NCBI GenBank assembly: GCA_965246715.1
Contig: CBDFFH010000027.1
Coordinates: 145,861-209,860 of the forward strand
Source of the DNA: Chamaesiphon sp.
Lineage (GTDB): Bacteria; Cyanobacteriota; Cyanobacteriia; Cyanobacteriales; Chamaesiphonaceae
Direction of reading: 5' to 3'
DNA length: 64,000 bases
The notes under the pieces were generated by a model. It saw nothing but the letters and a program-made list of their open reading frames with translations, had not been told where the DNA came from and ran no database searches. This document shows, in pieces, positions 1,651 to 47,815 of this stretch. A program made the translations under genes and the position numbers. How positions within the stretch are numbered: position 1 is the stretch's first letter; each line of letters opens with the position of its first letter.

Positions 1651-1672
1651 TTGGCATCGCCTACCGAAGGTA
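1651..1672 (+). repeat. 22-nt double-hairpin insert at a CG^ATCG site
   Basis: tcg-TTGGCATCGCCTACCGAAGGTA-atcgc. Confidence 0.8.
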
Positions 1673-1689
1673 ATCGCAATAGCTGAGAT

Positions 1690-1811
1690 TGATACTCGCT
1701 CGATGCTCTATTGAGAAGATTCTCTAACTGTTTTAATACTTCAATAACATCGTCAAAATTAGGTGCGGTGCCAAGCATTATCCCTTGCATCGATCGATAA
1801 TCTCGCTCCAA
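1690..1811 (-). pseudogene. C-terminal fragment resembling an AbiEii/AbiGii nucleotidyltransferase toxin
   Basis: LERDYRSMQGIMLGTAPNFDDVIEVLKQLENLLN resembles the C-terminal helix region of that family; it is cut off by the MITE at 1812. Confidence 0.5.
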
Positions 1812-1950
1812 TAGACCTCCTGCGAAAGTCCGAGTTCGATCGGCACAACCTATAATTATCAACACGTTTAGCTAATCTTCTATTGTTAGCTAACAATGCT
1901 CGAAATGCTTGGTATTAAAGGATAGTTAAAACACTTTCGCAGGAGGTCTA
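1812..1950. mobile_element. MITE-like element (139 bp)
   Basis: Perfect 18-bp terminal inverted repeats TAGACCTCCTGCGAAAGT (1812-1829) and ACTTTCGCAGGAGGTCTA (1933-1950); no internal ORF. Confidence 0.75.
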
Positions 1951-2059
1951 ATGATTTTAATAAATCATCATATGACACGATGTAGTAGCTGGAAAGTCAT
2001 CGATAAGGTTTGGTCAGATAACTTTGCCATCGATTTAAAATGAGTATTCTGGAATACCT

Positions 2060-3100
2060 TTAAGTATTCGGAGCAGTTAACCAGTTGTGTTGATAAAGAT
2101 GGTTCCAAGCAGTGCGAAGGTGGCTAACCTTGAAGATATTCCGTTTGCGTTCGCTCCACTCTTGAACTAACTCGATCGCTCGATCGCAGTCAATTGCCGC
2201 TTGCGGATCTTCTTTTGCGACCCAGTGGACTGTTGCCAGCATTTCCATTCCGTAGGGCGTTTCAAAGCCAACAATCAGGTTACTAACACGCTCTAAATGT
2301 GAATGAGATTCTTCACAACCCAAGAGAAATGCCTGCGCTTCTTCTCTTCCTGCGGGTAAAACAGCGATTTGAGAGTTTTGGGATCGATCTCCGTAACCTT
2401 TGATAAAATGTCCTTCAATTGCTTGCAGTACATGATTCAGGTTGTCAGCATAAGGCCCATACCGATCTTTTTGATAACGTAGTTTTAAGGGTTCACCTGC
2501 TTCTTGTAGGAAGTAAGCAAGTTTCTGAATCTCTAATTTGGAGAGACTGTAACCTGGAACACCGTATAAATCCAATAATCGAACGAATAAAGCACGAGGG
2601 CGGGTCATATTCGCCTTTTTAGTGCCAGCTTTCATCTTGTCCGCAGGTACGCCGCTAGGCTCGAAAATGATTACTTTAACTTCTGGTAAATTCTCAAACG
2701 CTTTGACGATCAGTGGCTTAACATCATTCCAATCCAGTCCACCGTTACCACAACCAAGAGGTGGAATGGCGATAGATTCTATGCCCAGCCGTTGAACATC
2801 TGTTGCTAATGCTTCCAGTCCAGACTGAATATCATCAATTCTCGATTTTTCTTTCCAGTGACGTTTGGTAGGGAAGTTGATCGCATAGCGGGGGAAAAGC
2901 TTACCCGTTGAGACGATGAACATCTCTCCTGGCTTGACTTCCTTTGCTGTGCAAGCCTTTTTGTACTCTTTGAAAACTTCAGGAAAGACCTGTTTGAACT
3001 GCAAAGCAATACCTTTACCCATTACGCCAACACAATTAACCGTGTTAACAAGGGCTACAGCATTCTCATCAAGGATGTTGCCTTGCTTAAATTCAATCAT
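2060..3100 (-). CDS. darG: Macrodomain antitoxin DarG (DNA ADP-ribosyl glycohydrolase)
   Basis: NTVNCVGVMGKGIALQF, INFPTKRHW, SIAIPPLGCGNGGL, plus the DarG C-terminal KLAYFLQ...YGPY; lies directly downstream of darT. Confidence 0.93.
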   Translation of the reverse strand: MIEFKQGNILDENAVALVNTVNCVGVMGKGIALQFKQVFPEVFKEYKKACTAKEVKPGEMFIVSTGKLFPRYAINFPTKRHWKEKSRIDDIQSGLEALATDVQRLGIESIAIPPLGCGNGGLDWNDVKPLIVKAFENLPEVKVIIFEPSGVPADKMKAGTKKANMTRPRALFVRLLDLYGVPGYSLSKLEIQKLAYFLQEAGEPLKLRYQKDRYGPYADNLNHVLQAIEGHFIKGYGDRSQNSQIAVLPAGREEAQAFLLGCEESHSHLERVSNLIVGFETPYGMEMLATVHWVAKEDPQAAIDCDRAIELVQEWSERKRNIFKVSHLRTAWNHLYQHNWLTAPNT

Positions 3101-3151
3101 GATTATCACCTTGTTCGTACAAAAGTACTAATACAAATATTTTATCAATTA

Positions 3152-3781
3152 TTAGTAATACCAACTAGAGTAAACCTTCACAGGGGGGCAGTAGTTAACA
3201 TTTTGCAACAATTCTTCAACTTTTCCTTTCATTTGGGGGTTGATTACACCAATCTCTCGAATCAGATGCCACGGACAAATTTGATGAACCAGAAATTCAG
3301 CTTGTCTCCTACACTTACGGTTAGGGTCATCTTCTGTATCAAACCAGTACCTCGATTGCATCAAGTTCCAGTCAATTACATCATCTAAGGCATTCAGATC
3401 GTTGTAAAAAGAGGAGTATCCCATAATGGCATGACCATCGGTAAATGCAAACTCGATCTCTGTCAATGAGATGGATTCAGCCTCACAAACAAAATAGATG
3501 ACTGGATTTTGACCGTCTTGATAACCTGCAACATTGCCCATTTTAATGGTGTAGAGCATTGGAGATCGTGGGGCAAAGTAGAAAGGTACATAGTCGTGCA
3601 ACACTCCCTTTGCACCGCAGGGAACCTGAATAGTAGCTCTTCTATCTTGAATGCTTTGATGGGCTATATCTGCATAATTAATCTGTTGCCGATCGAGTGT
3701 ATTCTTAGCCATCAACCCCCCCGCATCAATAATCGATTGTAGGTTTCGGAGATGCGTTATGTGATAGATAGAGGTAGGCAT
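3152..3781 (-). CDS. darT: DNA ADP-ribosyltransferase toxin DarT (DUF4433)
   Basis: YHITHLRNL, HDYVPFYFAPRSPMLY, FTDGHA and the catalytic RRQAEFLV. Confidence 0.93.
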   Translation of the reverse strand: MPTSIYHITHLRNLQSIIDAGGLMAKNTLDRQQINYADIAHQSIQDRRATIQVPCGAKGVLHDYVPFYFAPRSPMLYTIKMGNVAGYQDGQNPVIYFVCEAESISLTEIEFAFTDGHAIMGYSSFYNDLNALDDVIDWNLMQSRYWFDTEDDPNRKCRRQAEFLVHQICPWHLIREIGVINPQMKGKVEELLQNVNYCPPVKVYSSWYY

Positions 3782-3860: not shown

Positions 3861-4308
3861 AACTTTTTTGTCCTGATTCACCGCTTAGCAACTCCCCGTG
3901 AGTAGTCGCCAGAGCTAACTCTCCTTGCACCAAATCGGCCTCTAAAGCTGATAATTCTTCAGCTTTGCGCTATAACTCCTCTAGCTCTGGGCTAAGTGAG
4001 ATGACTAATCGATCGCTCATAACTAGATCCAAGACTCCGAAACATAGAATTAAGGTATGTGCGATATACCCAAACTTAGTATGCCCAAAATCTAGATCTG
4101 TAGTTCAATTAAGATGAATCCCGACAATCTACAAATATTGCAATCGGGAGCCTTTTGCCCACTTATTGCCGATCGACAGTTTACGCTCGATTACCTCCAG
4201 TACGCTACGCGAACGCATATATGGTGCTTAATCTAAGGCTGAAGCATGGCTTGACAATTAAGCAAATGCTAAAGTATCCTTTAGTTAAGCATTTGCTTAA
4301 TTATCTCT

Positions 4309-4632
4309 ATGAGTCGATCGACTGCCAGTACCGACATTTTTCAAGCGATCGCCGATCCCACTCGGCGGGCGATTCTGGATCGTTTGCAGTGTGGCGAGCA
4401 GCCTGTCAAGCACCTTGCGGAACCCTTCGCAATGTCTTTACCTGCCATTTCGCAACACTTGCAAGTCTTATCCGCAGCGGGATTAGTCATCCAGCACCGC
4501 CGGGGACGACAGCGCATCTACCGACTCAATCCAGCATCCCTCAAGCCAGTATCAGACTGGTTAAGTCAGTACGAACAGTTTTGGACGGCAAAACTGGATG
4601 CTTTAGGAGAGTATCTGGAGGAACAACTATGA
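4309..4632 (+). CDS. ArsR/SmtB family transcriptional regulator
   Basis: FQAIADPTRRAIL...SLPAISQHLQVL...GRQRIYRL; upstream palindromic TTAAGCAAATGCTAAA / TTAAGCATTTGCTTAA operator-like boxes. Confidence 0.92.
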   Translation: MSRSTASTDIFQAIADPTRRAILDRLQCGEQPVKHLAEPFAMSLPAISQHLQVLSAAGLVIQHRRGRQRIYRLNPASLKPVSDWLSQYEQFWTAKLDALGEYLEEQL

Positions 4633-5582
4633 ACCAGGAGATGGAGCTGGAAACATTTTATCCCCATCCACCGGAGCGCGTGTGGCAGGCATTGACCGAT
4701 CGCCGTGCTTTGAGTGTCTGGATGATGAACAACGATTTTGAAGCTTGCTTGGGGCATCAGTTTCGGTTTGAAAGTTGTCCGCTACCAGGTTTAAAAGTCA
4801 CAATTTACTGCCAAGTGTTAGAAGTGGAAGCACCAAAACGCCTAGTTTATAGCTGGAAAGAGCATCCCTCGGATATAGCGTCACGAGTAATCTGGACATT
4901 ATTTCCAGTCGAAGGCGGCACCCAAGTCCGACTTCAGCATCGAGGTACAGGTGCTGTGTCAATTCCTGTATTTGGGCGGCCAATCGCCGATCGATCTCGT
5001 AGGGAGATTGACTCTCAATTCACATCTGGGACAGCGATCGCACATCCCTTCCAGACAGCCGCTTCTACCTCAAAAGACGGCTTACATCGATATTCGGGAT
5101 TCCCGAACTACCAAATCAACTGGCATTACTGGTTGCACCAAAAATTACCTGGAGTATTAACTATGAGTTCAAATCAACAGCTTCTGCAAAGTTTATACGC
5201 AGCCTTCAATAACCGCGAGCTGGAAACAATCATCTCGGTGATGCACCCAGAGGTGAAATGGGCGAACGGGGTAGAAGGCGGTTTCGTCTATGGACGCGAC
5301 GCGGTGCGCGAATACTGGACTAATCAATATAAAGTTATTCAAGTGCAGCTTGAAACCTTAAAGTTTGAGACGGATGAAAAGAATCGCAATGTCGTTACCG
5401 TTCATCAAATCGTCAGAGATTTACAAGGCAATCTGCTTGCGGATATGACAGTTAAGCAAATCTTTACCATTGAGAATGATGCGTTGGCACAGCCCCTCTG
5501 CAAGAGGATCGTGCTTTATGAAATTGGCGAAACTGAAACCATCCAAGAGATGATTCAACAGACGAAAGCTGCCAACGATTGA
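4629..5582 (+). CDS. SRPBCC (AHSA1-like) domain read in frame into a SnoaL/NTF2-like domain
   Basis: ATG at 4629 overlaps the arsR stop; PPERVWQALTD motif; a second ATG at 5163 with a GGAG RBS starts the SnoaL part (LYAAFNNRE...GRDAVREYW). Confidence 0.8.
   Translation: MNQEMELETFYPHPPERVWQALTDRRALSVWMMNNDFEACLGHQFRFESCPLPGLKVTIYCQVLEVEAPKRLVYSWKEHPSDIASRVIWTLFPVEGGTQVRLQHRGTGAVSIPVFGRPIADRSRREIDSQFTSGTAIAHPFQTAASTSKDGLHRYSGFPNYQINWHYWLHQKLPGVLTMSSNQQLLQSLYAAFNNRELETIISVMHPEVKWANGVEGGFVYGRDAVREYWTNQYKVIQVQLETLKFETDEKNRNVVTVHQIVRDLQGNLLADMTVKQIFTIENDALAQPLCKRIVLYEIGETETIQEMIQQTKAAND
5484..5507 (+). repeat. 24-nt double-hairpin insert (in frame)
   Basis: gcg-TTGGCACAGCCCCTCTGCAAGAGG-atcgt; adds LAQPLCKR to the protein. 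Confidence 0.8.
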
Positions 5583-5621
5583 GCAAAGCCCACACTTCGC
5601 GAACGATGATGTTTCGGCGAT

Positions 5622-5643
5622 TACCTCCGGTAGGCTTCGCCAA
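5622..5643 (-). repeat. 22-nt double-hairpin insert
   Basis: Minus strand: tcg-TTGGCGAAGCCTACCGGAGGTA-atcgc. Confidence 0.85.
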
Positions 5644-6241: not shown

Positions 6242-6611
6242 AGACAGATGTTCAGTAGCTTTTAACTTTCACTGTTTGTTCCTATAACTAATTCAAGTTT
6301 GAGATCGCGCATTGCTCAAGAGATCTCAAATAGGTTCTATATATTTAGCTTTGTCAGATGAGGGTGGGCAAATTACTGGTAAGTACTGGTCTAATTCCAA
6401 AATCGATCGACCTTCAGAACTTTCAACAGATATGGATTTGGCCGAACAATTAGTAGCTAAGTGTCATGAGCCAACCAAAATCTAAACACCAAAACCGATC
6501 GCGTTCTTGCTGTCTTGGATGTATTGCTTCGGAGTAATGGACACCAGCCGCTTGAAGTGCGAACCAAAGTGGCTTTGACTCACAAATCCAGTTTCAATAG
6601 CTACACTCTCG

Positions 6612-6636
6612 TTGGCGAAGCCTCTCCTTCAGGAGA
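6612..6636 (+). repeat. 25-nt double-hairpin insert
   Basis: tcg-TTGGCGAAGCCTCTCCTTCAGGAGA-atcga. Confidence 0.85.
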
Positions 6637-6732
6637 ATCGATTTCTTTTTTCTAAGTAGACGTTTTGCCTGTAAAATTCGCAATTGAATTTGATAAGCGT
6701 GCGGCGGCATTCCAAAAGTTCTGCTAAAAGAT

Positions 6733-6754
6733 TACCTCCGGTAGGCTATGCCAA
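6733..6754 (-). repeat. 22-nt double-hairpin insert
   Basis: Minus strand: ccg-TTGGCATAGCCTACCGGAGGTA-atctt; removing it restores HLNRSF. Confidence 0.85.
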
Positions 6755-7323
6755 CGGTTGAGATGAAAGGAACTCAAATTCGCCACCTGTGCCAATTGCT
6801 CTAACGATATTTCTCGATTGTAATTATCTTCTAGATAGTCACGAACGTGATGGACAGGCTGAATTTCCGTTTCTAAATTGGCGAGATCCGGTGGTTTTTC
6901 TGAATAGCGGAGAATTAATTGTGCTAACAAATCTAGGGTCAATGTTTGTTGTTCGAGACCAGAGGTAGATCGTTCGATGGCTTGATGAACTCGAACGAAT
7001 TGGGTATTAAAGTCGCCGTCATGGACTAATGGCAGTGGGAAAAGTGGCAGATCTGTCTCGCGTCCCGCAACTTCTGTCGCCACTTGTTGAAGTAAATCTA
7101 TACCCACCCGTAGCCCGCGAAAAGTGCCGCTCCGCTCGCTAGGAGCATCGACTTGATGCAATTCACCTGGCTGTGTCACAACTAAGGTTTCTGAGGACAC
7201 GCTGTGGATCGTGCCTCGGTAGTTTAACTGCCAGCCGTTACCCTGTCTAAGGTTAAGCTCCAGTTCTTCATGAAAATGGCGGGGCAATGAAAAGCTTTTA
7301 CAAGTATTCTGAAAGAATTCGAT

Positions 7324-7345
7324 TACCTCCGGTAGGCTACGCCAA
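7324..7345 (-). repeat. 22-nt double-hairpin insert
   Basis: Minus strand: tcg-TTGGCGTAGCCTACCGGAGGTA-atcga; removing it restores LPSIEF. Confidence 0.9.
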
Positions 7346-7434
7346 CGATGGCAGGTATCGCGATCGCCAAAGTTTAGGACGTAATAGATCTTCTTTCATC
7401 GGCAGATTTGCTTTCATAAATAGATTTAAGGAAC

Positions 7435-12465: not shown

Positions 12466-12492
12466 TTGGCGGAGGCTCTTGCCTGAAGAGTT
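12466..12492 (+). repeat. 27-nt double-hairpin insert
   Basis: tcg-TTGGCGGAGGCTCTTGCCTGAAGAGTT-atcag; removing it restores ADSTDRDY. Confidence 0.75.
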
Positions 12493-12681: not shown

Positions 12682-12703
12682 TACCTCCGGTAGGCTACGC
12701 CAA
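12682..12703 (-). repeat. 22-nt double-hairpin insert
   Basis: Identical to 7324-7345 and at the homologous codon (PS^IE). Confidence 0.9.
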
Positions 12704-13123: not shown

Positions 13124-13846
13124 TTATCCGCGAGATTGAGGAATAGGATTGCGTCTGGTGTACCAAGCGTGCATCAGCAGATTTTGAAAGAATAGTACAG
13201 GTGAGTCGAATCCTCCTACTGCAATAATTGAGGCAACTTCTGACGGTGGTAGCACAGCCACATCGCGACCATAGGCGGCACTAATTTTAGCCCGAACCAT
13301 TTCAATTGGCATCCCAGCAGATGCCATTATCCGCAGCCAAATATCCAGAAGTTCTGGATAGGTTAAAGCAGATCGATCGTAAGCAAGATCGGCATTAATC
13401 ATATACCCCTGAGAGCGCAGTCTTACAGCAATCTGATGAAAAAAGTTGCGCCGTTCCTCTGGTTGTAATAAGAACTGAGACACAAACAGGCAAGTTGCTG
13501 CATCAAATGTGTCCGATCCAGGTAGTGAATCAAGATAACCTTCGTAAAAAGTACAGCGGGAAGTGATGCCAATATCTTCGACCCGCTGGCGACAAATATC
13601 CAGCATCGGTGCCGCAGGCTCTACCAATGTGAACCGCCATTGAGGAAAGGCTTGGGCAAGATCGATTACTTCTGAACCAGTGCCGACACCAACGCAGAGG
13701 ATCTGGGCATCGCTTGGAAGTTCGGACAATATCCTACGCATGAGAAAATTCAGTGCATCGCGTGTCGGCGCAAACACGGCATTCCCTTTGTCATAGGAAG
13801 AAGCCATTTGCCGATCGAACACAATAGCTGATTCTTGATTTGTCAT
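13124..13846 (-). CDS. Class I SAM-dependent methyltransferase
   Basis: ILCVGVGTG motif I and FDAATC; likely start MTNQES. Confidence 0.88.
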   Translation of the reverse strand: MTNQESAIVFDRQMASSYDKGNAVFAPTRDALNFLMRRILSELPSDAQILCVGVGTGSEVIDLAQAFPQWRFTLVEPAAPMLDICRQRVEDIGITSRCTFYEGYLDSLPGSDTFDAATCLFVSQFLLQPEERRNFFHQIAVRLRSQGYMINADLAYDRSALTYPELLDIWLRIMASAGMPIEMVRAKISAAYGRDVAVLPPSEVASIIAVGGFDSPVLFFQNLLMHAWYTRRNPIPQSRG

Positions 13847-13937
13847 AATAAAACTAATAGTCAATCTAGTTTTACCATAGCGACTAGATCGACTATGGGC
13901 TACCAAATTATTGCTCAGTTTGTCAAAAACTTGCCCA

Positions 13938-14056
13938 TCAACCTTTCCGATACATGTTAGGTGTGCCTGTAGTAAATCGACAAAACGTGGCGGCAAAGTG
14001 GCTTTGACTCGCAAATCCAAGCTGATAACTAATATCGCTAATGGGTAATTGCGTCA
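13938..14056 (-). pseudogene. AraC C-terminal HTH remnant
   Basis: QLPISDISYQLGFASQSHFAATF...TPNMYRKG*. Confidence 0.7.
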
Positions 14057-14265
14057 TAGGGCACTGGTCTGTTAAAGAGGGAGAGATGAAAAGCTGCGCT
14101 GAGTCAAGAGTTCATGGATAGAAAATGGGCGAAGAGAGTAACCCATCGCCATTGAAGGAGTGACACATTTGCCAAGACCCCAATGCGGTTTAACCCAGAT
14201 TTTGCCAGAAATTCAAAATAAGGAATTTCTGGCAAGGTAAGCATAGCTCATATTACTTAATAGAG

Positions 14266-14389
14266 TTGACAAACCAGTCATAACAGGCTAAAAGTAAGAC
14301 AAGCCCATAAAATAGCCCACGTAGTTATTTTAAATGGCTGTAAGCCTTGTATGACAAGGCTTGTGACTCTATTAGCACTACTTTGGGGT
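14266..14389 (+). repeat. Left copy of a ~124-bp inverted repeat with att core and arm-like sites
   Basis: Ungapped inverted match to 15702-15825; contains AGCCCATAAAATAGCCCA and the core CACTACTTTGGGGT. Confidence 0.9.
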
Positions 14390-15522
14390 TGTAGATGGCT
14401 TGTTCCAATATCAACAAACAAACATTCACTGCCGATCGCGTGAGCGTAAGTAGATAACATCATGCGCTTATCATGTCCAGTCTGTTCTGCCAGTGCGATG
14501 TAATTAGCACCGTTATGAAGCGCATGAGAGATGGCAGTGTGTCGAAGATTGTATGGTGAGCGATATTCGATCTGGCAGCTTTCAAGTATGGTTTTCCATG
14601 CTCTTCTTCTAAACGTATGGTCATTGATGGGCAAACCTTTGGGGCTGGGAAATACCAGATCGTCCGGCTGTGGCGATAGTCGATTGAATCTGGCTACCAA
14701 CATCGCTCTCACATTCGGCGGTAACTGGATAGTGCGATGCTTTCCCGTTTTGGTGCCCTTTTGGTTTTGATGGCCGCGAGAGATGGATTCCCCGATCCAT
14801 ACTGTGCTGTAGTCCGAACCTAGATGCTGCCATCGCAACCCTGCAACTTCGCCAAATCTGCAAGCAGTAGAGGCGAGAAAGATGATGAACTCAGTGTAGT
14901 GAGAGTAATATGGATCGATCGCGAACGCTGAGATAATCGCTTGGAGTTCGGCAATAGTGAAGGGTTTCTTCTGTTGCCGATTTGGGGCTTTGTGACCCCT
15001 GGTAATCGTAGTGGTTAAACAACACTCCCAGGGATTAGATTCGGCAACGTGGTACTTTCCCTTAGCCCAATCCCAGCAAGCTTTTAAATAGTACAGATAT
15101 GATTTGACTGTCTTACTTGATGCCGATTCCAACCATTTAGTGACCAGATCCTTTGCTACAGGCTCAGTCACTTTCTCGGCAGGTTTATCACCGAGTAACC
15201 GATCGAGTTTGGACAGGATCGCTTTAAGTCTTAGCCCCGATCCGTGAGTTATTCCCCGCTCTTGTTGATGGAAGGGAATATATTTCTCAAATAGTTCGAC
15301 TGCACTAATAGCCGTGGGATCGTTCCCAAGCTTGCGAGGTTTGTATCTGAATAGTGTAGTATCGAAGTTTCCGTAGTTGATGTCTTTCTCGATCTGTGCC
15401 ATCTTCATCTTGGCAGCAGACATCCCCACCGGATTATTGTGTTTGGGCAGACTGAAGCTATAGGGCTTGCCATCGTGCGAAAACCTGATAAGTAGGCTAT
15501 TGCCGCGTTTTTCAATGTGCAT
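14278..15522 (-). CDS. Tyrosine recombinase/integrase with an N-terminal Arm-type DNA-binding domain
   Basis: TACRFGE (R), YNLRH (HxxR variant), TGH and Y; N-terminal beta-rich LLIRFSHDGKPY; the C-terminal tail runs through the att repeat. Confidence 0.92.
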   Translation of the reverse strand: MHIEKRGNSLLIRFSHDGKPYSFSLPKHNNPVGMSAAKMKMAQIEKDINYGNFDTTLFRYKPRKLGNDPTAISAVELFEKYIPFHQQERGITHGSGLRLKAILSKLDRLLGDKPAEKVTEPVAKDLVTKWLESASSKTVKSYLYYLKACWDWAKGKYHVAESNPWECCLTTTITRGHKAPNRQQKKPFTIAELQAIISAFAIDPYYSHYTEFIIFLASTACRFGEVAGLRWQHLGSDYSTVWIGESISRGHQNQKGTKTGKHRTIQLPPNVRAMLVARFNRLSPQPDDLVFPSPKGLPINDHTFRRRAWKTILESCQIEYRSPYNLRHTAISHALHNGANYIALAEQTGHDKRMMLSTYAHAIGSECLFVDIGTSHLQPQSSANRVTSLVIQGLQPFKITTWAILWACLTFSLL

Positions 15523-15666
15523 AAAAACAGTGGGTGAAATGGTGGGCGACGTACCAGCCAAACCACGCAAAACAGCACATTATTTTGAGTGCATAGACAC
15601 GAAAAAGCGGCTGTTAAGAAATGGTTGGTTTCCTAAAAGCTTTGCCAGCAATATGTTTCAATCAAA

Positions 15667-15715
15667 TCGGAACGAGAGGATTTGAACCTCCGACCCCTAC
15701 TACCCCAAAGTAGTG
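15667..15715 (-). tRNA. 3' fragment of tRNA-Pro(GGG), serving as an att site; not a full gene
   Basis: Anticodon arm CTACT-TTGGGGT-AGTAG, T-arm GGAGGTTCAAATCCTCT and acceptor 3' strand CGTTCCGA; the D-arm and 5' half are absent. Confidence 0.85.
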
Positions 15716-15825
15716 TAGCTAAAGATATAAGCCTTATCTTCCAAGACTTCCAGCCATTAAAAATAACTACATGGGCTATTTTATGGGCTAGTCTCATTTT
15801 CAGCCTGTTATAGTTGGTTTGTCAA
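15702..15825 (-). repeat. Right copy of the ~124-bp inverted repeat
   Basis: Inverted counterpart of 14266-14389. Confidence 0.9.
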
Positions 15826-15838
15826 GTTTATTCACACA

Positions 15839-15879
15839 GCGATAATCGATCGATAGAGCAACAAACCGATCGATTATCG
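15839..15879. terminator. Hairpin built on CGATCG sites (possible terminator)
   Basis: GCGATAATCGATCG ... CGATCGATTATCGC, 14-bp stem. Confidence 0.4.
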
Positions 15880-16046
15880 CCAGCTATCTGTCAAATTCGA
15901 TCCGCTTTCTCGGTTCGTTCTGTTTTTGCTTTTTCCTGGTAGCGAAGCTTCTCTGGATCGAGCGTTCCCAGTCGATTGCGACCGACATTAACCGTGTCGT
16001 CTAATGGCGATCGTGTTCGGTAAAGATAGACGAGAAGACTCACAAC

Positions 16047-16101
16047 ACTTGACATCTCTTACATTACTTTAGATAATAAAGATAACTTGACATCTCTTAC
16101 A
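16047..16101 (+). promoter_or_regulatory. Sigma70-type promoter with a 17-bp direct-repeat operator
   Basis: TTGACA(16049)-N17-GATAAT(16072); ACTTGACATCTCTTACA at 16047 and 16085. Confidence 0.7.
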
Positions 16102-16112
16102 AGGAGATTTTT

Positions 16113-16682
16113 ATGGTTGTTACTCTCGATCCGCAAACAGCGCAACACCTCGAAGCTTATCAAGCTCTCAGTTCTACCGAGCGCGAACTTGTGACCCAAG
16201 CCCTCGAACGAGTTGCCAGTAAAGAAACATCAGATCCCGCGATCGAGACTCTAGCAGAATCGATCGCTGGCAGATCCTTTACCCGCACCGAACGCATCCA
16301 ACTAGAAATAGAAACCCTCAGCAGACATTTCCAGCACCGCCGCCAACTGCTCGATACAGCTATTAGTGCTAGCCATGTGGCACAGATCTTGGGCACTTCT
16401 CGCCAAACCCCTCACGATCGGGTTGGCAGTCAATCCCTAATCGCTATTAAAGAAAACGGTAAATTCTGCTTTCCAGTTTGGCAGTTCGACCCGACAGGAT
16501 CGGATGGGGTTATCGATGGCTTGCCAGATATCCTCAAGGCTTTGCAAGTATCCGACTATAGCAAGCTCAATTGGCTGACTCGCCCCAACCCCTATTTAGA
16601 CAACCTCACCCCAATTGAGGCTCTGAAGCAGGGAGAAAAAGAGCGTGTCTTAGCCGAAGCTAAGGCGGTAGGAGCGATCTGA
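16113..16682 (+). CDS. Antitoxin of a RES-type TA pair (MbcA/ParS/Xre-like C-terminus)
   Basis: FPVWQFD, WLTRPNPYLDNLTPIEALK; coupled to the RES gene. Confidence 0.8.
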   Translation: MVVTLDPQTAQHLEAYQALSSTERELVTQALERVASKETSDPAIETLAESIAGRSFTRTERIQLEIETLSRHFQHRRQLLDTAISASHVAQILGTSRQTPHDRVGSQSLIAIKENGKFCFPVWQFDPTGSDGVIDGLPDILKALQVSDYSKLNWLTRPNPYLDNLTPIEALKQGEKERVLAEAKAVGAI

Positions 16683-17311
16683 TGGTTCGGATCGCTCTGC
16701 CACCTCCCTCAAAACCTCCTTCCCCCTCGTTCCGTACCCTTGCGGCTGGTACTAGCATCCTGCGGATTTTCGATCCTACCCGCTACGGCACTACCGCTCT
16801 AACTTTCCGTTATTACGGGCCGATCGGTCGATTCGACCACCAACGTCCCTTGCCTAAAGGTGGATGTACTGAGGATTTAAAACGCGGTATCTCCTACGCT
16901 GGGTTGACTCTCTCTTGCTGTCTGGTTGAGTGTTTTGGCGATAGCGGAGTTATCGAACTCAAAGGACAACAAATCGGTCGCATCCAGATCGAGCGCGAGC
17001 TTAACCTTCTAGACTTGAGAGGGAATGGAGCGATGAGGGCTGGCTCCGTCGCGGCTTTGGCTAAAATTGCCGATCGGCAGATCTCTCAAGAATGGTCGCG
17101 CTACTTTTACGAACGAACGGAATTGTATGGGCTAATAGATGGTATTAGCTACTTCAACGCTCACAATGATGAGGAAGCATTTGCTTTGTACGAACGAGCG
17201 CAATCTGCCTTGGTTTGCCCAGATTCTCAAATTCTATCCTTAAATCATTCCAGTCTTCGTCCTGCCATTCAACAAGCATCTCTTGCCAACCATTTGGACT
17301 TTCTACCGTAA
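16682..17311 (+). CDS. RES domain toxin (NAD+ phosphorylase-like)
   Basis: GRFDH, YAG...CLVECF, LLDL, DGISY, ALYER. Confidence 0.85.
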   Translation: MVRIALPPPSKPPSPSFRTLAAGTSILRIFDPTRYGTTALTFRYYGPIGRFDHQRPLPKGGCTEDLKRGISYAGLTLSCCLVECFGDSGVIELKGQQIGRIQIERELNLLDLRGNGAMRAGSVAALAKIADRQISQEWSRYFYERTELYGLIDGISYFNAHNDEEAFALYERAQSALVCPDSQILSLNHSSLRPAIQQASLANHLDFLP

Positions 17312-17344
17312 CGAGCGAATTAGCATCGATCGGATGGCGTGGTA

Positions 17345-17465
17345 TTCATGTCCTTTGACAAGTACTAGTATTTTTGTTCTATAATAAGTTGGAAATCTAA
17401 TTGCTTGCGATCGAGATGAATACGTTTACCCTCCATAACGCGAAATCCCAGTTCTCCAAATTATA
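17345..17465 (+). repeat. Duplicated promoter plus phd 5' remnant (copy of ~35260-35380)
   Basis: Shares tactagtatttttgttctataataagtt...aaatcccagttctccaaatta with the other copy; contains a LexA-box-like AGTATTTTTGTTCT. Confidence 0.85.
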
Positions 17466-17550
17466 GTTATTAGCAGTAATTAGATCGGTTTGGCTCGAAC
17501 GATCGATCTTCACTCAATCGGTTAGCTGAATCCTCAGTTCACCTAAATTT

Positions 17551-19728
17551 ATGCGAAATCTGTTGATTGTTGAATCTGCTGGCAAAATCAAAAAGCTTAG
17601 GAGTATCCTCGGCTCTGACTGGGATGTCAAGGCATCGATCGGGCATATTCGCCAACTTGCTAACGATGGGGATGGTGCGTTAGGCTTCGACCTGGGTGCA
17701 GATACGATCGACTGTCGCTACATTCCCCGCGACGAAAGAGCCAAACAAACGATTGCCGGACTCATTGCCGCAGCCAAGCAAGCGGATCGAGTCTTCATCG
17801 CCTCAGATCCAGATCGAGAAGGTGAAGTAATTGGCTGGCATATCGCCCAGGTATTGAAACTCAAACAGCCCCAGCGGGTTGTCTATCAGGAGATTACTGA
17901 GTCCGCAGTCAAAAAAGCGATCGCCAGCCCTCGCTCCCTCGATATGGCTCTAGTAGAGGCGGGTAGGTGTCGCGATTGTCTAGATAAATTGGTCGGCTAC
18001 AAAGGCTCGCCCCTCATCTGGCGACTCAATAACGGGGCGAAAAGCGTCGGTCGTGTACAGTCCGCCACCCTGCACCTAGTCTGCCAACGAGAACGAGAAA
18101 TTCAATCCTTCATACCACAAGATTATTGGTCGGTATTTGTAGACTATGCCGAAGGATTCAGAGCCTTTTACAACGGAACTGCTCAAGTTGTCTCACCAAT
18201 AGCAGAGGAGGAAACTAGCGACGATGCTGGAGCTTCCGAAAAAGTCGCTGAATCGACGCGGGTATTGAGTCAGGCTGAAGCCGAAAGATTGGTGGAAATT
18301 GGAAAATCTCACCCCCATCAAGTTAAGACGATCGAAGGTAAACTCGCGCCCAAAAAGCCTCCCGCTCCATTCATCACCTCGTCACTGCAACAAGCCGCAG
18401 GTTCGCGCTTAAAGTTCAGCCCCGAACATACGATGTCAGTCGCCCAGAAACTCTACGAGGCTGGGTTGATTACCTACATGCGGACTGATTCGGTCGAACT
18501 CAGTCAGGACTTTTGCACCGCTGCACGGGAATGGCTGCTCGCTCACGATAAAGATAATGTACCTACAAAAGTTGCCAAACAGCGCAGTTCCAAAGACGCT
18601 CAGGAAGCCCACGAAGCGGTTAGACCGACCGATCTAACAAAAGCTTCAAGCGACCTCAAACAGCAGCTTTCCGAAGATGAATTCGCATTATACGTGATGA
18701 TTTGGATGCGATCGATCGCGTCTCAGTGCAAACCCGCACAGATTCGCAAAACCACGATCGTCACTCAGTCTGGTGAGATTCAGTGGCAAGCCAGAGGGCA
18801 AATGCTGGAATTTGCAGGCTATGCCAAATATTGGAAGGATATCAGCGGCGATGCCGTATTGCCTAGCTTGCAACCCCAGCAACCGCTTACCGCAGCAAAC
18901 GTCAGTCACGAGCAGAAGCAAACCCAACCACCGCCACGCTATTCCGAGCCAAAACTCGTCCAACTGATGGAACGTAAGGGTATCGGTCGTCCTTCTACTT
19001 ACGCGCCTACTATTGCCACGCTCAAGCAACGTAATTATGTCGAACTAGTTAAGAGTAAAGTGCAGCCGACGACTGTTGGTTTGCAAGTGGATGATTTTCT
19101 GATGCAAGCTTTACCAGAGTTGATTCAATCGGAATTTACGGCGGGGATGGAAACCCAACTCGATGCAATTTCCAAGGGGCAGCAAGAATGGCAAAGTTAT
19201 CTAATTGAGTGGAACCGGAGCTATTTCGCGCCAGCGTTGAGTAAAGCTACTAAGAATCTACCAGAACAGGATTATGGATCGTTCCAGGGTAAGGAGCTGG
19301 AGAAATCGCGCTCGAAATGTCCGACTTGTAGCAAGCCAATGTCTAAAGTACCGACCAAGAAGGTGAAGAAGGGCTATTTTCTCAAGTGTGAGGATGGCTG
19401 TAAAGATACTGAGGGCAAAGGGTTAGTAATGTTTTGGTCGGATCGATCGAATGAATGGCAAATTCCGCAACCTAAAACCGAGCAGTCATCTCCAGCGAAA
19501 CTTACCGAACATCCTTGTCCAGTTTGCCAGAAGCCGCTGGAAGAATACAGCTACACGAAGGATGGACAAGCCAAGTCGATGTTACGGTGTTCGGATGCAG
19601 CAGCTCGAACCAAGCCCAAACACAAGGATGTCGCTTATTTTAGGGGGAAAGAGGGGGTGTGGTGGAGTCCAAAATTGGGTAATCTCGGTGCGGATGCTGC
19701 TAGATCGAGCCAGGTAAAAGCACCATAG
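17551..19728 (+). CDS. topA: Type IA DNA topoisomerase (plasmid/ICE type) with C-terminal Zn fingers
   Basis: LLIVES, SDPDREGE, GRVQS, ITYMRTDS, EAHEAVRPT, GIGRPSTY. Confidence 0.95.
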   Translation: MRNLLIVESAGKIKKLRSILGSDWDVKASIGHIRQLANDGDGALGFDLGADTIDCRYIPRDERAKQTIAGLIAAAKQADRVFIASDPDREGEVIGWHIAQVLKLKQPQRVVYQEITESAVKKAIASPRSLDMALVEAGRCRDCLDKLVGYKGSPLIWRLNNGAKSVGRVQSATLHLVCQREREIQSFIPQDYWSVFVDYAEGFRAFYNGTAQVVSPIAEEETSDDAGASEKVAESTRVLSQAEAERLVEIGKSHPHQVKTIEGKLAPKKPPAPFITSSLQQAAGSRLKFSPEHTMSVAQKLYEAGLITYMRTDSVELSQDFCTAAREWLLAHDKDNVPTKVAKQRSSKDAQEAHEAVRPTDLTKASSDLKQQLSEDEFALYVMIWMRSIASQCKPAQIRKTTIVTQSGEIQWQARGQMLEFAGYAKYWKDISGDAVLPSLQPQQPLTAANVSHEQKQTQPPPRYSEPKLVQLMERKGIGRPSTYAPTIATLKQRNYVELVKSKVQPTTVGLQVDDFLMQALPELIQSEFTAGMETQLDAISKGQQEWQSYLIEWNRSYFAPALSKATKNLPEQDYGSFQGKELEKSRSKCPTCSKPMSKVPTKKVKKGYFLKCEDGCKDTEGKGLVMFWSDRSNEWQIPQPKTEQSSPAKLTEHPCPVCQKPLEEYSYTKDGQAKSMLRCSDAAARTKPKHKDVAYFRGKEGVWWSPKLGNLGADAARSSQVKAP

Positions 19729-19820
19729 TTCGATCGCAATTATTAAGATCGAGCATATAACCAAAAGTAAAATGTTATCTCTCTAACAAAATACTATTGC
19801 GGAAACAATGGGAGCAAATT

Positions 19821-20201: not shown

Positions 20202-20218
20202 TATTAGAATGAGGTGAT

Positions 20219-20664: not shown

Positions 20665-20688
20665 TTGGGCTTTGCCCTGCCTTTGGCA
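20665..20688 (+). repeat. 24-nt double-hairpin insert
   Basis: tcg-TTGGGCTTTGCCCTGCCTTTGGCA-atcga. Confidence 0.75.
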
Positions 20689-24408: not shown

Positions 24409-25933
24409 TCACCGACGACGATTCAATCGCTGGATGATGAAAGCTGCGATGAGGCTGGCAGCAACGCCCCAAAGTAATCCATAAAACGGTGCAGTGGCAG
24501 CAATACTTTCCTTACTTTGACCTGGTTCTGGCGGCTGGGCACCGATCGTGCTAGTGGCAACTTGGGTAACAGATAAACCGACACCAACGATGGCAATCAT
24601 TTCACTGTTGAAGCGAGCGAGTTTAGTCTGCTCGACGCTGCTTTCTGCTTGCTCGACGCTGCTTTTTGCTTGTACGATTTTCACGGTGTTATCGATCGCC
24701 TGAAAGAGTTTTTCGAGATAGGTCAGGCGGGGAGCTAAGAACGCATCATCGGCGGCAATTTGCCGAGCGTAGCGATTGGCATGATTATCGCCGTTGAATT
24801 CTTTGAGAAATTTCAGGTCGCTATTTGGGTAGCGAGCAGTCATTGATTTTAATCGATCGCGGTAATTATCGCAGTTTGTGGCGATCGTCCGTCCCTGGTC
24901 GGCTAAATCGATCGATCCTTCGGTATAGGTTTTAAATTGTTGGAGAGTGTGGAGGGAACTGGTTTGCAATTCATCGAGTTGGTGTTTGACGATCTGGCTA
25001 CTAGCAGACTTGGACGATCTGAGACGATTGGGATTGAATCAGAGTGGACAGCGCAGATTCGGTACGATCGCCGATTTGGTGGATCTTAACGACTTCCGAT
25101 GTGAGATTGGCGGCGATCGATTGGCTTTGGGCGTAAGCTGCCCAAATTTTGTGCCGATAGTGGAATAGACGCAGCCAGTCTCCGTATGTGGCGGCGATGC
25201 GAGCGTTGAGGGCGATCTGGTCGCTCTCAGTATGGGGAAAGAGCCAAATTAACACATGCTGGCTGGAACCGATCGCGTCAGTCGCATCGTTAATAGCTCT
25301 GGGATACCTCCACAGTTCGTATAGATCCCCGCCTAATAATTTTCCGCATCCGAGATAGTCGGTATCCCAGTCCCACTTATTATTGGGGTCGGTATTGGGA
25401 AAGGTTTGGTCGTAGCAGATTCGCGCGATCGCTTCTGAATCTAGATCGGGATTGGTGAGAGTCGCCCGCAGCACCCAAGTTTGTCCGAGGGTAAACGTGC
25501 CACCGTGCAGGCGTTTGACAATCTCTTGATGACGATCGCCAAAGGGATTTGTGGCTAAATCTTGCGGATCGAAGTTGTCTTTACCACCCTGACGATCGCC
25601 AGAATAATCGACTAATAGAGCATAGGTATCGTCTAGTTGCACGGGATAGTAATAACCATCTGCCGGATCGCCAAATGGTTCGATCTGCTGGGGGTGCAAC
25701 TCGGTGAAGTGGCTATTAGCAAGTTCGCGAGAGCGAAAATGAGCGAGATCTTTATCTACCCGATCGCCATAAATTTTCCGATAGAAGTTCTTCGCCCGAT
25801 GCTCTGTGGGAGCGGCTGTGCCCACGATCGGGGGCGTGACTCCAGCACTAGAGCTAGATTCTGACTCGCCTAAACCTTGCAACAGATCGTAGAGGTAGAG
25901 ATTGACGGTCGGGTAGATAATTGATTCACTCAT
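24409..25933 (-). CDS. Uncharacterised protein with a coiled region and two C-terminal TM helices; one gene split by a +1 shift near 25012
   Basis: Removing one C joins ORF 25001-25933 to ORF 24409-24969 (QIVKSASSQIVKHQLDELQT). Confidence 0.7.
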
Positions 25934-45455: not shown

Positions 45456-45972
45456 AATTCCACTTTTAGTACTACTTTCATTTCTACTTTCTAGTCTTCC
45501 TGCTAGGGCTGGTACGGTGTCGCTACAAAGAGAACGTGTAATTGCCAATGTATCGGAAAACACCGGACAGCTACTCGATTGGTCGGCAACCGATCGCCGA
45601 ATCGAGCGGATATTTTTTGACAATCCCGAACGTTTCCGCGATTCATTTGTAATTACTACCGATGGTTGCACTAACAATAAATGTGTCAATGCTTCTCTGT
45701 TAAATATTAGTGCCCGTCCTAGCGGTCGTTATGTGGATGGTTCGCTCAAAGTGATCCTCAACGATCGTTCGGGCAGAAAGCGTGTTTTGACGGTGAATGT
45801 AGTCAAAGTCAAGCAGGTTGATGATAGCGTGATGACATTTTCACCTGTTGCAATTCTCAGCCAACCAAGCTATCGCTCCTCCGTTGGAGGGGCTACGCCA
45901 ACGACAGGATTTTACAACAGAGAGCGAGTTGGTTATCCTAGCTCCAATCGCAAAAGTAGTAATAAACTCTAA
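45442..45972 (+). CDS. Secreted T4SS protein, possibly VirB9/TraK-like
   Basis: Signal peptide (ARA-G) and RIERIFFDNP. Confidence 0.5.
   Translation: MLLNKIPLLVLLSFLLSSLPARAGTVSLQRERVIANVSENTGQLLDWSATDRRIERIFFDNPERFRDSFVITTDGCTNNKCVNASLLNISARPSGRYVDGSLKVILNDRSGRKRVLTVNVVKVKQVDDSVMTFSPVAILSQPSYRSSVGGATPTTGFYNRERVGYPSSNRKSSNKL
45878..45901 (-). repeat. 24-nt double-hairpin insert (in frame)
   Basis: Minus strand: tcg-TTGGCGTAGCCCCTCCAACGGAGG-agcga. Confidence 0.75.
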
Positions 45973-46127
45973 TCCAAATGAACCGAAGAAATTGGCGAGA
46001 GATCCAACTCTTTACTCTTCAAGCGATCGTAATAATCACATTCATGGGTGCTTTATTTGGAGTAATGTCTGGGCTGTATGGGGGACTGCGCTACTTCAAA
46101 CCTAATTATCAACAACAAGCTAAATAA

Positions 46128-46337
46128 ATGATGCAAAGTCGTACTTTTAGACAACATAGCTCGGAGTCAATCGGGCAATGGTTCTACAAACATCGTCGTG
46201 CGATTTTCATAGCTACGATGAGAACTGCGGTTTATTCAACTATTAGCGTAGCTGGTTATCACATTTGCACTGGTAGTGTGAGTATCTTCGTGTTTTTAAA
46301 AGAGTATATATTCCCTATTTTTCAGGAGGTTATGTAA
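46128..46337 (+). CDS. Small hypothetical protein
   Basis: Fills the operon gap and ends over the GGAGG RBS of the next gene. Confidence 0.4.
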   Translation: MMQSRTFRQHSSESIGQWFYKHRRAIFIATMRTAVYSTISVAGYHICTGSVSIFVFLKEYIFPIFQEVM

Positions 46338-46338
46338 C

Positions 46339-47815
46339 ATGATTTATCGCAATCTTTTTTTATCTATTTTATTTAGTACCAGTTATTTGTCGCTGCCAGT
46401 TCGCGCCGACACAACAGTACATCAACTTAGCCAAGAACAACTAGGCACAGTTAAAAAGGCTCTGTCTACAGCTACATTTGCGAATAGTCCGCCGACGACT
46501 ACAGCCGCGACTTATGTTGCCGATCCCCGCATACCGCAAATTCCTAGCTTTTCGTATGCTGAGGGTACGCCGTTGCCTAAAGCCGTTCCTGGTGCGATGG
46601 CATCGATGATGGGGGCGAGTAAGTATTCGCCACAATCGGCAACTACCGATGCAGGTGGCGATCCCAATGCCTTTGCCAACACAAAATTAACGTCCTTACC
46701 CTTTTTTGGCAAATTGCCCTTTGCCTCAGTTGTTGCGGCAAATCCCCAGCTCGCTGAGTTAAAGGTTGGTGATGTTTTTCCAAGTTGGGGTGCAGCCGAT
46801 CCATCCAAATCGGTCGCGGATGTAGCTAATAGCCCTCTGGGGAAAACTCCATTACCCCCTGAAGTTCTAGCCTCTACCCCAACATCAAACCTTCTTGGCG
46901 TTACCGATACTCCATACGGCGACTATCCTGGTATCGGCAAACCACCGCTCGATCCCACCAATCCAGGTGAGACGGTCTATGTTGCCGATATGCCTGGTGT
47001 TTCTAAATTATCCTGGGATAAATTCGTGAAAATTGGTGCCATTCCTTCAGGATTAACGCTATTAAAATTCGATCTCCTTCACTCTGGGCAAAAAGAATTG
47101 AGCGTTGCTAATAGCGATAAAGTTGCCGCAGGAAGTAATAAAGAGCCGAATGCTCCCTGTAAAAATTGCGATGCAGTCGAACTGCTAAGTGCCGTAGCCG
47201 CCAATAGCAATTTAAACCCTTACAACGGGACGATCTCGGCCGATTGGATTGCGGCTAAAAGGTGGCGAAGGATTGCTCGGAGATTTGTTTACTGCTGCTG
47301 GGGTTCGAGAGGATTCAGGGTTTGAAGTCCCATATATCGGTTTTGGAGACTGCGGCTCGAAATGGTCTGCTAGATCGCCTAATGTCCAAGCTGGGACGTT
47401 TCAACAAACACTTAGTTTTCGCTATTGTTATACCCTACCATTTCTCGGATTCCAAGCCACCCCCTATTTTCTCGCTCTGCCGCTACCACTTCCAGCAAAT
47501 GAGAAGCAAGCTAATCTGCTACTGCCAATGAAGGTTAAGCCCGTTGCAAATAAATTGTTTCCATCGCCAACAATTCCATCAGTTCCATCAATTCCTTCGA
47601 CTCCCTCAATAGCTTCAGTTTCACCATCACCAAGGATTTCGCCCACCATTCCATCCGCTGTTGGAATTGACAAAGTAGCCCTATTTGGGAGTGCTACTAA
47701 GAACTCCTATAGTCCGACTTTGAACGTATATTCCGACAGGGGAGCGTCAGCAAAACTACCTGCAATCGTTCGCGTAGCGTCGCCCTTGGTGAATCGTCAT
47801 GAAAAGTTCGGTTAG
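46339..47815 (+). CDS. Secreted Pro-rich T4SS-associated protein (frameshift near 47240)
   Basis: Signal peptide (VRA-D); two overlapping ORFs; CKNC and GGEGLLG. Confidence 0.6.
47769..47792 (+). repeat. 24-nt double-hairpin insert (in frame, compensatory variant)
   Basis: tcg-TTCGCGTAGCGTCGCCCTTGGTGA-atcgt. Confidence 0.7.

Follow-up and report, generated by a model that had tools for sequence, protein, structure and literature searches.

Double-hairpin elements of 22-25 nucleotides related to SDR5 in Chamaesiphon sp.: insertion at CGATCG and possible movement as single-stranded DNA

The small dispersed repeat 5 (SDR5) of Nostocaceae was reportedly described by Elhai et al. in 2008 (Genome Res 18:1484), together with SDR4 and SDR6, which are said to have the same fold and to nest in their own copies. 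Since that description, the question of how a sequence of 21-25 bases copies itself appears to have stayed open. According to the accessible parts of the cited papers, SDR5 is 21 nt long (PMC13756078), enters HIP1 between bases three and four (PMC4390886, PMC5861425, PMC13756078) and had not been found outside Nostocaceae according to a 2018 paper (PMC5861425). Its function was still called unknown in the excerpts of a 2026 paper, and the accessible portions of the literature examined named no confirmed HIP1-binding or HIP1-cutting protein. The IS200/IS605 and the REP/REPIN systems with RAYTs served as further comparison (available sections of PMC6006769; PMC3116915). Small GC-rich two-hairpin inserts are also found among the double-hairpin elements of fungal mitochondria; the accessible part of PMC10085805 calls these potentially mobile, with identical copies across species, and names no enzyme. 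They are organellar and have no HIP target, and the likeness is one of description only.

Here, we analyzed a window of 64,000 nt from Chamaesiphon sp. (contig CBDFFH010000027.1, positions 145,861 to 209,860), in which an initial annotation had listed 11 copies of a double-hairpin element of up to 27 nt. All 11 were recovered exactly where it had placed them, but the copies in the window measure 22-25 nt, and three additional copies on the minus strand had been overlooked. The features are as follows, with G314 denoting a second genome:

1651..1672, plus strand: 22-nt element, hairpin 1 loop ATC, at CG^ATCG, intergenic; a search for a spanning homolog found none
4192..4213, minus strand: 22-nt element, overlooked initially; score 18.8
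5484..5507, plus strand: 24-nt element lying in frame within the SnoaL-like domain of ORF 4155-5582
5580..5603, minus strand: 24-nt element, overlooked initially; provides the stop codon of ORF 4155-5582
5622..5643, minus strand: 22-nt element, from the structural scan
6485..7399, minus strand: AraC-family gene interrupted by three elements (AraC pseudogene)
6612..6636, plus strand: 25-nt element in this pseudogene
6733..6754, minus strand: 22-nt element in this pseudogene, right flank ATCT; five empty paralogs
7324..7345, minus strand: 22-nt element in this pseudogene; four empty paralogs
12466..12489, plus strand: 24-nt in-frame element, old and decayed, lying in a second AraC paralog; score 13
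12682..12703, minus strand: 22-nt element in the second AraC paralog; four empty paralogs
20665..20688, plus strand: 24-nt variant with two 4-bp TTT-loop hairpins
25801..25824, minus strand: 24-nt decayed element, in frame in ORF 25001-25933; overlooked initially
45878..45901, minus strand: 24-nt element, right flank AGCG
47769..47792, plus strand: 24-nt element, common to G314

The element consists of TT, a 3-bp hairpin 1 with a GNA loop and a hairpin 2 of 4-5 bp with a triloop, and about 390 copies are present in the genome of Chamaesiphon sp., compared with about eight expected by chance. Copies were detected by a scored structural scan in place of a covariance model, which at a score of at least 15 returned 392 copies in the genome and four in a 3 Mb control; a strict structural scan gave 251 matches and none in 6 Mb of fifth-order Markov sequence. 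The catalogue, whose scan is blind to 21-mers, contains 239 copies of 24 nt, 94 of 22 nt, 40 of 25 nt, 17 of 23 nt and two of 26 nt. More than 100 variants occur, hairpin 1 and hairpin 2 types combine freely between copies, and an Rfam search of the window returned no match. A sister subfamily, which has hairpin 1 in common with the element, uses G^A as its insertion point outside HIP, within hairpin loops including those of other copies, a nesting that resembles, in description only, the one reported for SDR4 and SDR6. Loop inversions of the kind that template switching typically leaves are present in the MITE hairpins of the genome.

The suspected kinship to SDR5 was borne out. Elements of 21 nt in GCG^ATCGC were found in Nostoc sp. 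MG11 (52), Nostoc sp. UHCC 0252 (74) and Scytonema hofmanni UTEX 2349 (24), and like the Chamaesiphon element they combine a hairpin 1 of the form GGC-GNA-GCC with a second hairpin that has a triloop; the same three genomes also carry 24-nt forms like those of Chamaesiphon. Because this 21-nt form of Nostocaceae agrees with it in hairpin 1 and in the position of the cut, and fits SDR5 as cited, the element is, as judged from sequence, to be classified as a 22/24-nt variant of SDR5, matched by citing descriptions and not by a published consensus. It also has the SDR5 register, with a boundary set by empty paralogs. In contrast to SDR5, it is 22-25 nt instead of 21 nt long, starts with TT and not mostly with TA, has a hairpin 2 of 4-5 bp closed by T-A without a spacer, targets a hexamer with T preferred at -3 instead of an octamer, and is abundant in a lineage outside Nostocaceae. 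Across the phylum, 83 of the 301 genomes and 58 of the 131 genera contain the family, some single matches possibly being due to chance; named genera with matches are Chamaesiphon, Phormidesmis, Leptolyngbya and Phormidium. Chamaesiphon polymorphus had no octamer-flanked 21-mers. Carriage on viral contigs was rejected, as a second stem was present in 5 of 118 matches, none of them in HIP-rich DNA, which indicates chance. In a literature search that mostly did not extend to subscription papers, we found no description of the family in Chamaesiphon and no paper naming an enzyme.

The elements insert at an exact site, without duplication and repeatedly in independent events. Among 118 copies with a spanning paralog, 84 have an empty one (over 20 of these are repeats of one MITE site), and 34 independent clean empty/filled pairs were obtained. 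Comparison of 32 G314 copies with their orthologs here revealed 22 empty sites, six filled and four other. Both the empty paralogs and the G314 orthologs agree with the earlier claims of mobility and of a missing target duplication. Of 12 loci homologous to the window site at 5484..5507, 10 lack an insert and two carry the same element, and a paralog on contig C20 carries a different, 22-nt element at the site of the 6612 copy. The 12466 copy appears as a 24-nt gap in comparison with its paralogs, is shared with C20:80595 and is followed by GTTA and not ATC. For the 12682 copy, contigs of the sequencing runs X1 and X3 omit the 22 letters, strain and paralog not being separable as their source; the run search returned no RNA run among the carriers listed. 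Removal of the elements had been said to restore the AraC reading frames, and deleting the 6612, 6733 and 7324 copies indeed leaves a sequence that matches the intact AraC neighbour without interruption over 282 aa. In the second paralog (12682 and 12466), the frame is restored over residues 1-128 only, because this gene also carries a deletion. The AGCG flank at 45878 likely reflects a base change after insertion, since the G314 ortholog reads ATCG.

To define the target, 317 independent copies were used for site statistics. The proposed site CG^ATC was found for 259 of them, and the usual target is the longer hexamer CG^ATCG (237/317). The enrichment of CGATC over chance is clear: 205 of 364 double hairpins after CGTT end in ATC, compared with 0-4 after seven other 4-mers. 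With no flank selection applied, the ATCG that follows the cut on its 3' side shows 75-92% conservation per position. On the 5' side, T at -3 is present at 61% of the element sites and 40% of all CGATCG sites (p 8e-12), a preference that was replicated in G314 (87/142, p 4e-7) and has no mirror at +5 in the 237 hexamer sites, where C at +5 reaches 38%. No flank conservation was detected beyond -5, and the idea of an extended palindrome or hairpin loop as target was rejected, as no pairing extends past the hexamer. The full octamer GCGATCGC does not serve as the target in Chamaesiphon sp. The relaxation noted by the initial annotation mostly mirrors the host's HIP form, because same-type 24-nt elements in Nostocaceae occupy the full octamer (23 of 26, with a search pattern that allowed neither C at -3 nor A at +5).

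This agreement with the host's HIP form, octamer in Nostocaceae and hexamer in Chamaesiphon, is what would be expected if the host HIP machinery were parasitised: a nickase at methylated CGATCG (the mismatch-repair nick proposed by Elhai) or a topoisomerase would open the site, and the oligonucleotide, stable in its folded form, would be captured and ligated without a dedicated transposase. Directed HIP1 cutting could partly explain the precision of SDR5, as the accessible text of PMC4390886 has it; genomes with fewer than 500 CGATCG sites have almost no copies (one copy in five GGCGCC-HIP genomes), and no Y1 set tracks the element. HIP abundance is nevertheless insufficient, as genome G195 has 27,679 CGATCG sites and no copy. 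Retargeting in seven GGCGCC-HIP genomes was rejected, with hairpin-1 counts at or below control in six; in the G437 genome (48 versus 66 overall) no element family was seen among 150 of 247 matches listed. Furthermore, the sister subfamily uses G^A outside HIP, G at -3 is disfavoured (19% of the hexamer sites versus 30% background), opposite to a G-methylC nick model, and the release of the donor is left unexplained. We consider this explanation unlikely.

The structure of the element is conserved by covariation on the strand starting with TT, as had been proposed from compensatory changes. In 104 distinct 24-mers, gathered without a pairing test, five informative stem positions are Watson-Crick in 85-96 sequences (shuffle maxima 52-79); the outer T-A pair is nearly invariant and uninformative. 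The loop of hairpin 1 is GNA in 218 of 260 copies, and hairpin 2 has 5 bp and a triloop in 108 of 158 24-mers and 4 bp and a triloop in 57 of 65 22-mers, 56 of which read C(GNA)G. GCGNAGC is present in 163 of 237 copies. According to the accessible part of PMC13037366, this motif forms a DNA mini-hairpin of extraordinary stability that resists nucleases; SSB bound a related mini-hairpin poorly, and the RNA 8-mer was much less stable. A single-stranded intermediate, DNA or RNA, had been suggested from the GNA loops; the single strand is supported, and the choice leans to DNA without being settled. Single-stranded DNA is favoured by the GCGNAGC mini-hairpin, the near-universal triloops and the one-sided target preference. 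Nearest-neighbour energies neither separated the strands nor exceeded those of shuffles, and no guide-like covariation or pairing between the variable loop and the flanks rose above the null. A bias to the G-rich strand (GC skew) in the Chamaesiphon sp. genome (189/317, p about 0.001) was not replicated in G314 (106/210; 2.4 of 6.28 Mb), where strands are mixed without a replichore pattern (best two-segment split p 0.64). A search for a clear dnaA in both genomes, which would give the fork direction needed for a comparison with the lagging-strand-template bias of IS200/IS605 elements, found none.

An RNA copy, in which a folded transcript is written into a new CGATCG by a reverse transcriptase or RNA-templated repair, is reportedly close to the idea of the original SDR authors. 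Stem mismatches on the TT strand are more often G-T than A-C (29 versus 10, p 0.003), an excess that speaks for action on one strand in the DNA model and fits RNA wobble equally well; RVT_1 matches number 22 in the genome. Error-prone copying would go well with the high diversity of the loops and with the free reassortment of the hairpins, and four of ten loops in the 23-nt class are GNRA. In contrast, the loops are overwhelmingly DNA mini-hairpin triloops, only one of 21 four-base loops in the 25-nt class is GNRA and UUCG does not occur. With no link to the coding strand (52/109, p 0.70), no Rfam match in the window and exact ends lacking tails or duplication, RNA copying seems quite unlikely.

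Alternatively, the element could spread without excision if a filled CGATCG site were copied into another one through recombination or template switching, the covariation then reflecting quasi-palindrome correction and not recognition. Both flanks are fixed and common to donor and target, the MITE hairpins carry inverted loops, and 23 MITE-borne copies have a common altered first flank base with differing, compensated stems. However, the common flank comprises only 2+4 bases, and the loops of the element are not inverted, GNA staying on the TT strand. Junction mismatches were mildly raised in Chamaesiphon empty-filled pairs and not raised in those of G314, and flank co-conversion was not shown in either. 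This route is thus very doubtful.

No mobilising enzyme was identified among Y1 transposases, RAYTs and the integron integrase, and co-occurrence with HUH/RAYT genes, a suggested check, was not supported, as no tested set tracks the element as a required partner. Y1_Tnp was detected in 35 of the 36 genomes that have the element and in 39 of the 44 that lack it, with no match in G232 (153 copies); RAYTs occur in 34 of 36 and 39 of 44, with none in G151 (107 copies), some element-rich genomes without Y1 or RAYT being drafts. A class-1 Y1 protein of the Chamaesiphon genome (22/38 versus 10/42) had no counterpart in four genomes of Nostocaceae that carry 90-215 copies. Three of six Y1 genes have a copy within 500 bp, compared with 7.6% of random spots, two of them being paralogous loci. 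Action in cis near REPs was rejected in the absence of enrichment (7/317 versus 2.5% of sites, degenerate REPs being missed), as was a mother element whose two hairpins would enclose a gene: 64 left halves lacking a perfect right half, with about 50 bases read, looked decayed or nested. By eye, five clustered genome loci and six of nine tandem-copy metagenome loci had no common neighbour gene, and no circular form was observed.

Integron crossover sites resemble the G^TT left junction and the G^AT target, and cassettes recombine as folded single strands, which would fit an integron-type tyrosine recombinase handling the folded strand. This is extremely improbable and largely refuted: the integrase stayed below the TIGR02249 cut-off in all five element-rich genomes, the element is far shorter than attC, and most copies have no terminal G. 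Like IS200/IS605 and REPIN, the element shows hairpin recognition on one strand, no target duplication, precise ends and a base preference 5' of the cut. Its 3' flank is strongly read, whereas the target of IS200/IS605 (IS608) is defined only 5' of the cut. No clear cognate gene emerged nearby or by co-distribution, Y1 and RAYT genes being near-ubiquitous. IS200/IS605 ends carry, in the accessible sections of the sources, subterminal hairpins of 20-25 nt with a guide tetranucleotide 5' of the hairpin foot; the Chamaesiphon element reaches this length only as a whole and lacks a guide, its hairpins spanning 9-14 nt with only TT before hairpin 1.

If both strands were cut in a staggered fashion, AT would be duplicated, and the duplex circle on which recombinases act cannot be formed from 22 bp. 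Single-strand chemistry is favoured on both counts, as no AT duplication occurs. We tentatively prefer, as a serious possibility short of a probable one, non-autonomous SDR5-kind elements of 22-25 bases, inserted at G/A of CGATCG, that move as single-stranded DNA by means of an enzyme encoded elsewhere. On exposed single-stranded DNA, the TT strand would fold into two abutting mini-hairpins and bring the ends together. A tyrosine cut-and-join enzyme, most plausibly of HUH type, would nick at G^TT and at the 3' end, reseal CGATCG and close the element into a dumbbell circle of 22-25 nt, and the reverse reaction would insert it at G^A of single-stranded (T)CGATCG. Replication would then carry the insert over to the second strand, and at the donor site the old copy would persist on the strand left uncut. 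The bolder form, with closed single-stranded dumbbells of 21-25 nt capped by GNA mini-hairpins and mobilised by an undescribed enzyme that recognises CGATCG and cuts and pastes single strands, is possible although rather unlikely.

Genic copies are scarce (109/392, compared with 1013/1500 sites), and 85 of the 109 are 24-mers, 83 of them stop-free. This deficit and the share of 24-mers point to selection that would clear most genic copies and spare in-frame, stop-free 24-mers. The element is thereby a steady source of gene knock-outs (22-mers) and of in-frame insertions of eight residues (24-mers). The analysis extends the range of the family well beyond Nostocaceae and defines the recognised structure and a strand-specific target. 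If the dumbbell reading is true, these would be among the smallest transposable DNAs, with two hairpins that reassort as modules and write 8-residue loops into proteins, and the element would serve as bait for the protein that processes HIP1, long sought, and would provide an insertion chemistry that is precise and leaves no scar.

All 11 element copies of the initial annotation were recovered in place, and three additional ones (4192, 5580 and 25801) bring the total in the window to 14. In the genome holding the window (G000; 6.1 Mb, 55 contigs), a strict structural scan detected 251 elements versus 0 in a 6 Mb Markov control, and a scored scan detected 392 versus about 8 expected, with lengths of 24 nt (239), 22 nt (94), 25 nt (40), 23 nt (17) and 26 nt (2). 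CGATCG occurs 28,367 times in this genome and GCGATCGC only 2,803 times. The copies are clustered: of 317 independent ones, 95 lie within 1 kb of another copy, compared to 34 on average when random sites are taken.

The window itself is a conjugative island, in which the 58 ORFs scanned (of 90) include genes for VirB3, TraG/TraD, a topoisomerase and an integrase. It also carries DarT/macrodomain, RES/Xre, MazF-like and PIN genes (2060-3781, 13124-21177, 35604-56427), and its coupling protein is apparently split over two ORFs (48262-50278). Elsewhere in G000, an array of small genes, several of them toxin-antitoxin-like by eye, lies at C2:235000-245600 (locus L001:5000-15600). A repeated spacer of ~200 bp, headed by a GTAG-tagged REP-like hairpin, separates these genes. 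The array looks cassette-like and contains 17 element copies, 16 on the same strand and many inherited with the spacer. No strong dnaA match was found in the whole genomes of G000 and two others, G314 and G011 (best PF00308 match partial, E ~1e-8), and these may therefore replicate without DnaA.

The elements are real, mobile and structurally defined. An empty paralog exists for 84 of the 118 copies that have a spanning paralog in G000, and 34 cases were left once duplicates and poor flanks had been taken out. The element at 5484 is missing from 10 of 12 homologous loci, and at site 6612 the paralog carries a different element. Empty-site orthologs, on which the proposed mobility depended, were found as well: in G314, sampled as 210 independent copies in 2.4 Mb, 32 copies have an ortholog in G000, of which 22 are empty, 6 filled and 4 other. 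Taking out three inserts gives back a full AraC frame, and target duplications are absent. Genic positions account for 109 of 392 copies versus 1013 of 1500 sampled sites. Most genic copies are 24-mers (85/109), 83 of these 85 are stop-free (expected stop rate 16%), and no coding-strand preference was observed among genic copies (52/109).

A MITE family ending in AACTCACGTTA, which we take to be Nezha-like, is present on many G000 contigs (e.g. C16:21835, C12:143706). At one site, ~30 of its copies are empty and 23-25 filled, the stems of the filled copies differ in a compensated manner, and the hairpin loops of the MITE itself show inversions. Junctions are otherwise clean, but 23 element copies at one MITE site have C at flank position +1, where all empty copies have A; this is probably a single old change spread by the MITE.

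On a single strand, the layout is CG, TT, hairpin 1, hairpin 2 abutting without spacer, and ATCG. Hairpin 1 consists of GGC or CGC, a loop, and GCC or GCG; among 260 independent copies, the loop is GNA in 218. Hairpin 2 has 4 bp and a triloop in 57 of 65 22-mers (56 of these C-GNA-G), and 5 bp and a triloop in 108 of 158 24-mers (loops TTT, GAA, TCT and others). Conservation of structure through compensatory changes was borne out by 104 distinct 24-mers gathered without any pairing test: Watson-Crick pairs occur in 85-96 of them at five informative positions (shuffle maxima 52-79). Kinship among the copies inflates this significance, but a single position can show as many as four pair types. 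The outer T-A pair is almost invariant. The same hairpin 2 is found with both hairpin 1 stems and every loop, suggesting that modules are exchanged or that double changes recur; free combination of hairpin 1 and hairpin 2 variants is seen in the catalogues of G000 and G314. Folding energies of the element were uninformative; excerpts of PMC13037366 describe the stability of GCGNAGC as unexplained by standard models.

CG^ATCG is the site of 237 of 317 independent copies. Among these 237, T is enriched at position -3 (61% versus 40% in the background) and A depleted (4% versus 15%), a T preference repeated in G314. No mirror image was seen at +5, indicating that the CGATCG palindrome is read on one strand. 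G000 targets showed no extended palindrome beyond the hexamer and no covariation between element and flanks. Nostocaceae 24-mers lie in GCG^ATCGC in 23 of 26 cases, so that the insertion context goes with the HIP form that the host uses. Abundant CGATCG seems to be required but is not enough: five GGCGCC-HIP genomes with 103-437 CGATCG sites hold 1 copy in all, and genome G195 holds none despite 27,679 sites. In control counts of GCTAGC, all element-positive genomes have >500 sites and many element-free ones strongly avoid it (2-100 sites), perhaps because of their restriction load or because they exchange few genes.

A smaller subfamily has its insertions at G^A outside HIP contexts, often in hairpin loops, those of its own kind among them, and nests in other copies:
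G000 C20:17512, C5 and C51:3892: non-HIP subfamily examples, hairpin 2 = TCTGC-loop-GCAG
Read as its reverse complement, a REP-like hairpin that borders class-1 Y1 transposase genes (~246 copies in G000) is similar to this hairpin 2.

Insertion of 22 bases is blunt and duplication-free, the target is read on one strand and the mini-hairpins are of DNA type, all of which speaks for single-stranded DNA; we tentatively favour movement in this form by a dedicated enzyme. The two abutting hairpins would bring the element ends together, so that excision could yield a small closed dumbbell. HUH enzymes perform such cut-and-join chemistry (PMC6006769, in excerpt), making a candidate HUH enzyme our best guess for the mover. 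The suggested co-occurrence with HUH/RAYT genes did not emerge, as Y1_Tnp is present in 35/36 element-positive versus 39/44 negative genomes and RAYT in 34/36 versus 39/44. A class-1 Y1 of G000 is present in 22/38 versus 10/42 (nominal p 0.003, a difference in which kinship and genome size are confounders); it is missing from genomes G111, G205, G232 and G258. No integron integrase was detected in the five element-rich genomes tested, and copies showed no proximity to REPs. Capture of the folded element by a host nick comes next, and we consider it unlikely. An RNA route appears more doubtful, and recombination or template switching is the least probable of these routes. Three results are neutral to the favoured model or speak against it: a G-rich-strand bias of copies in G000 was not repeated in G314, the G-T mismatch excess on the TT strand suits RNA and DNA equally, and reverse transcriptases are many in G000. 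One reverse transcriptase domain lies in a 1326-aa frame at C43:22760, with several more such genes nearby on C43.

The pattern was found in 83 of 301 phylum genomes (maximum 215 copies, controls near zero). A GTDB search with the 22/24-nt pattern, covering 3 of the collection's 64 parts, gave 121 loci; of the 80 matches listed, 46 are from Chamaesiphon and 27 from cyanobacteria of other genera, the remaining 7 being of other origin or without a label. For C. minutus, TCGATCGA is given as the dominant octamer (excerpts of PMC4390886). On these two grounds, G000 is probably a Chamaesiphon. Exact variants common to G000 and the G314 part examined number 29, and 24-mers of the same sequences are present in Nostocaceae (G512, G514), hinting at horizontal spread. 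On G314 contig C1, the stretches 1.0-1.5 and 2.0-2.5 Mb exceed 3-6 Mb in copy density by a factor of 2-5, and plasmid-sized contigs of G011 also look copy-richer.

A 21-nt form with the same hairpin 1 in GCG^ATCGC has 52, 74 and 24 copies in named Nostoc/Scytonema genomes, and none in Leptolyngbya PCC 6406 or C. polymorphus. Excerpts of citing papers (PMC4390886, PMC5861425, PMC13756078) describe SDR5 as inserted between HIP1 bases 3 and 4, carried by a few heterocystous strains and of unknown function; it is given as 21 nt long (PMC13756078) and as absent outside Nostocaceae (PMC5861425). By length, site and lineage, matched to the descriptions in these citing papers, we infer the 21-mer to be SDR5. 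With this identification, the suspected kinship is upheld: the window's elements belong to the SDR5 superfamily and work like SDR5, but differ from it in length, octamer and lineage. The elements are of a kind already known but neglected; what is new, as far as our literature searches reach, is that the range is wider, that the mini-hairpins bear a DNA signature and that the target is strand-specific.
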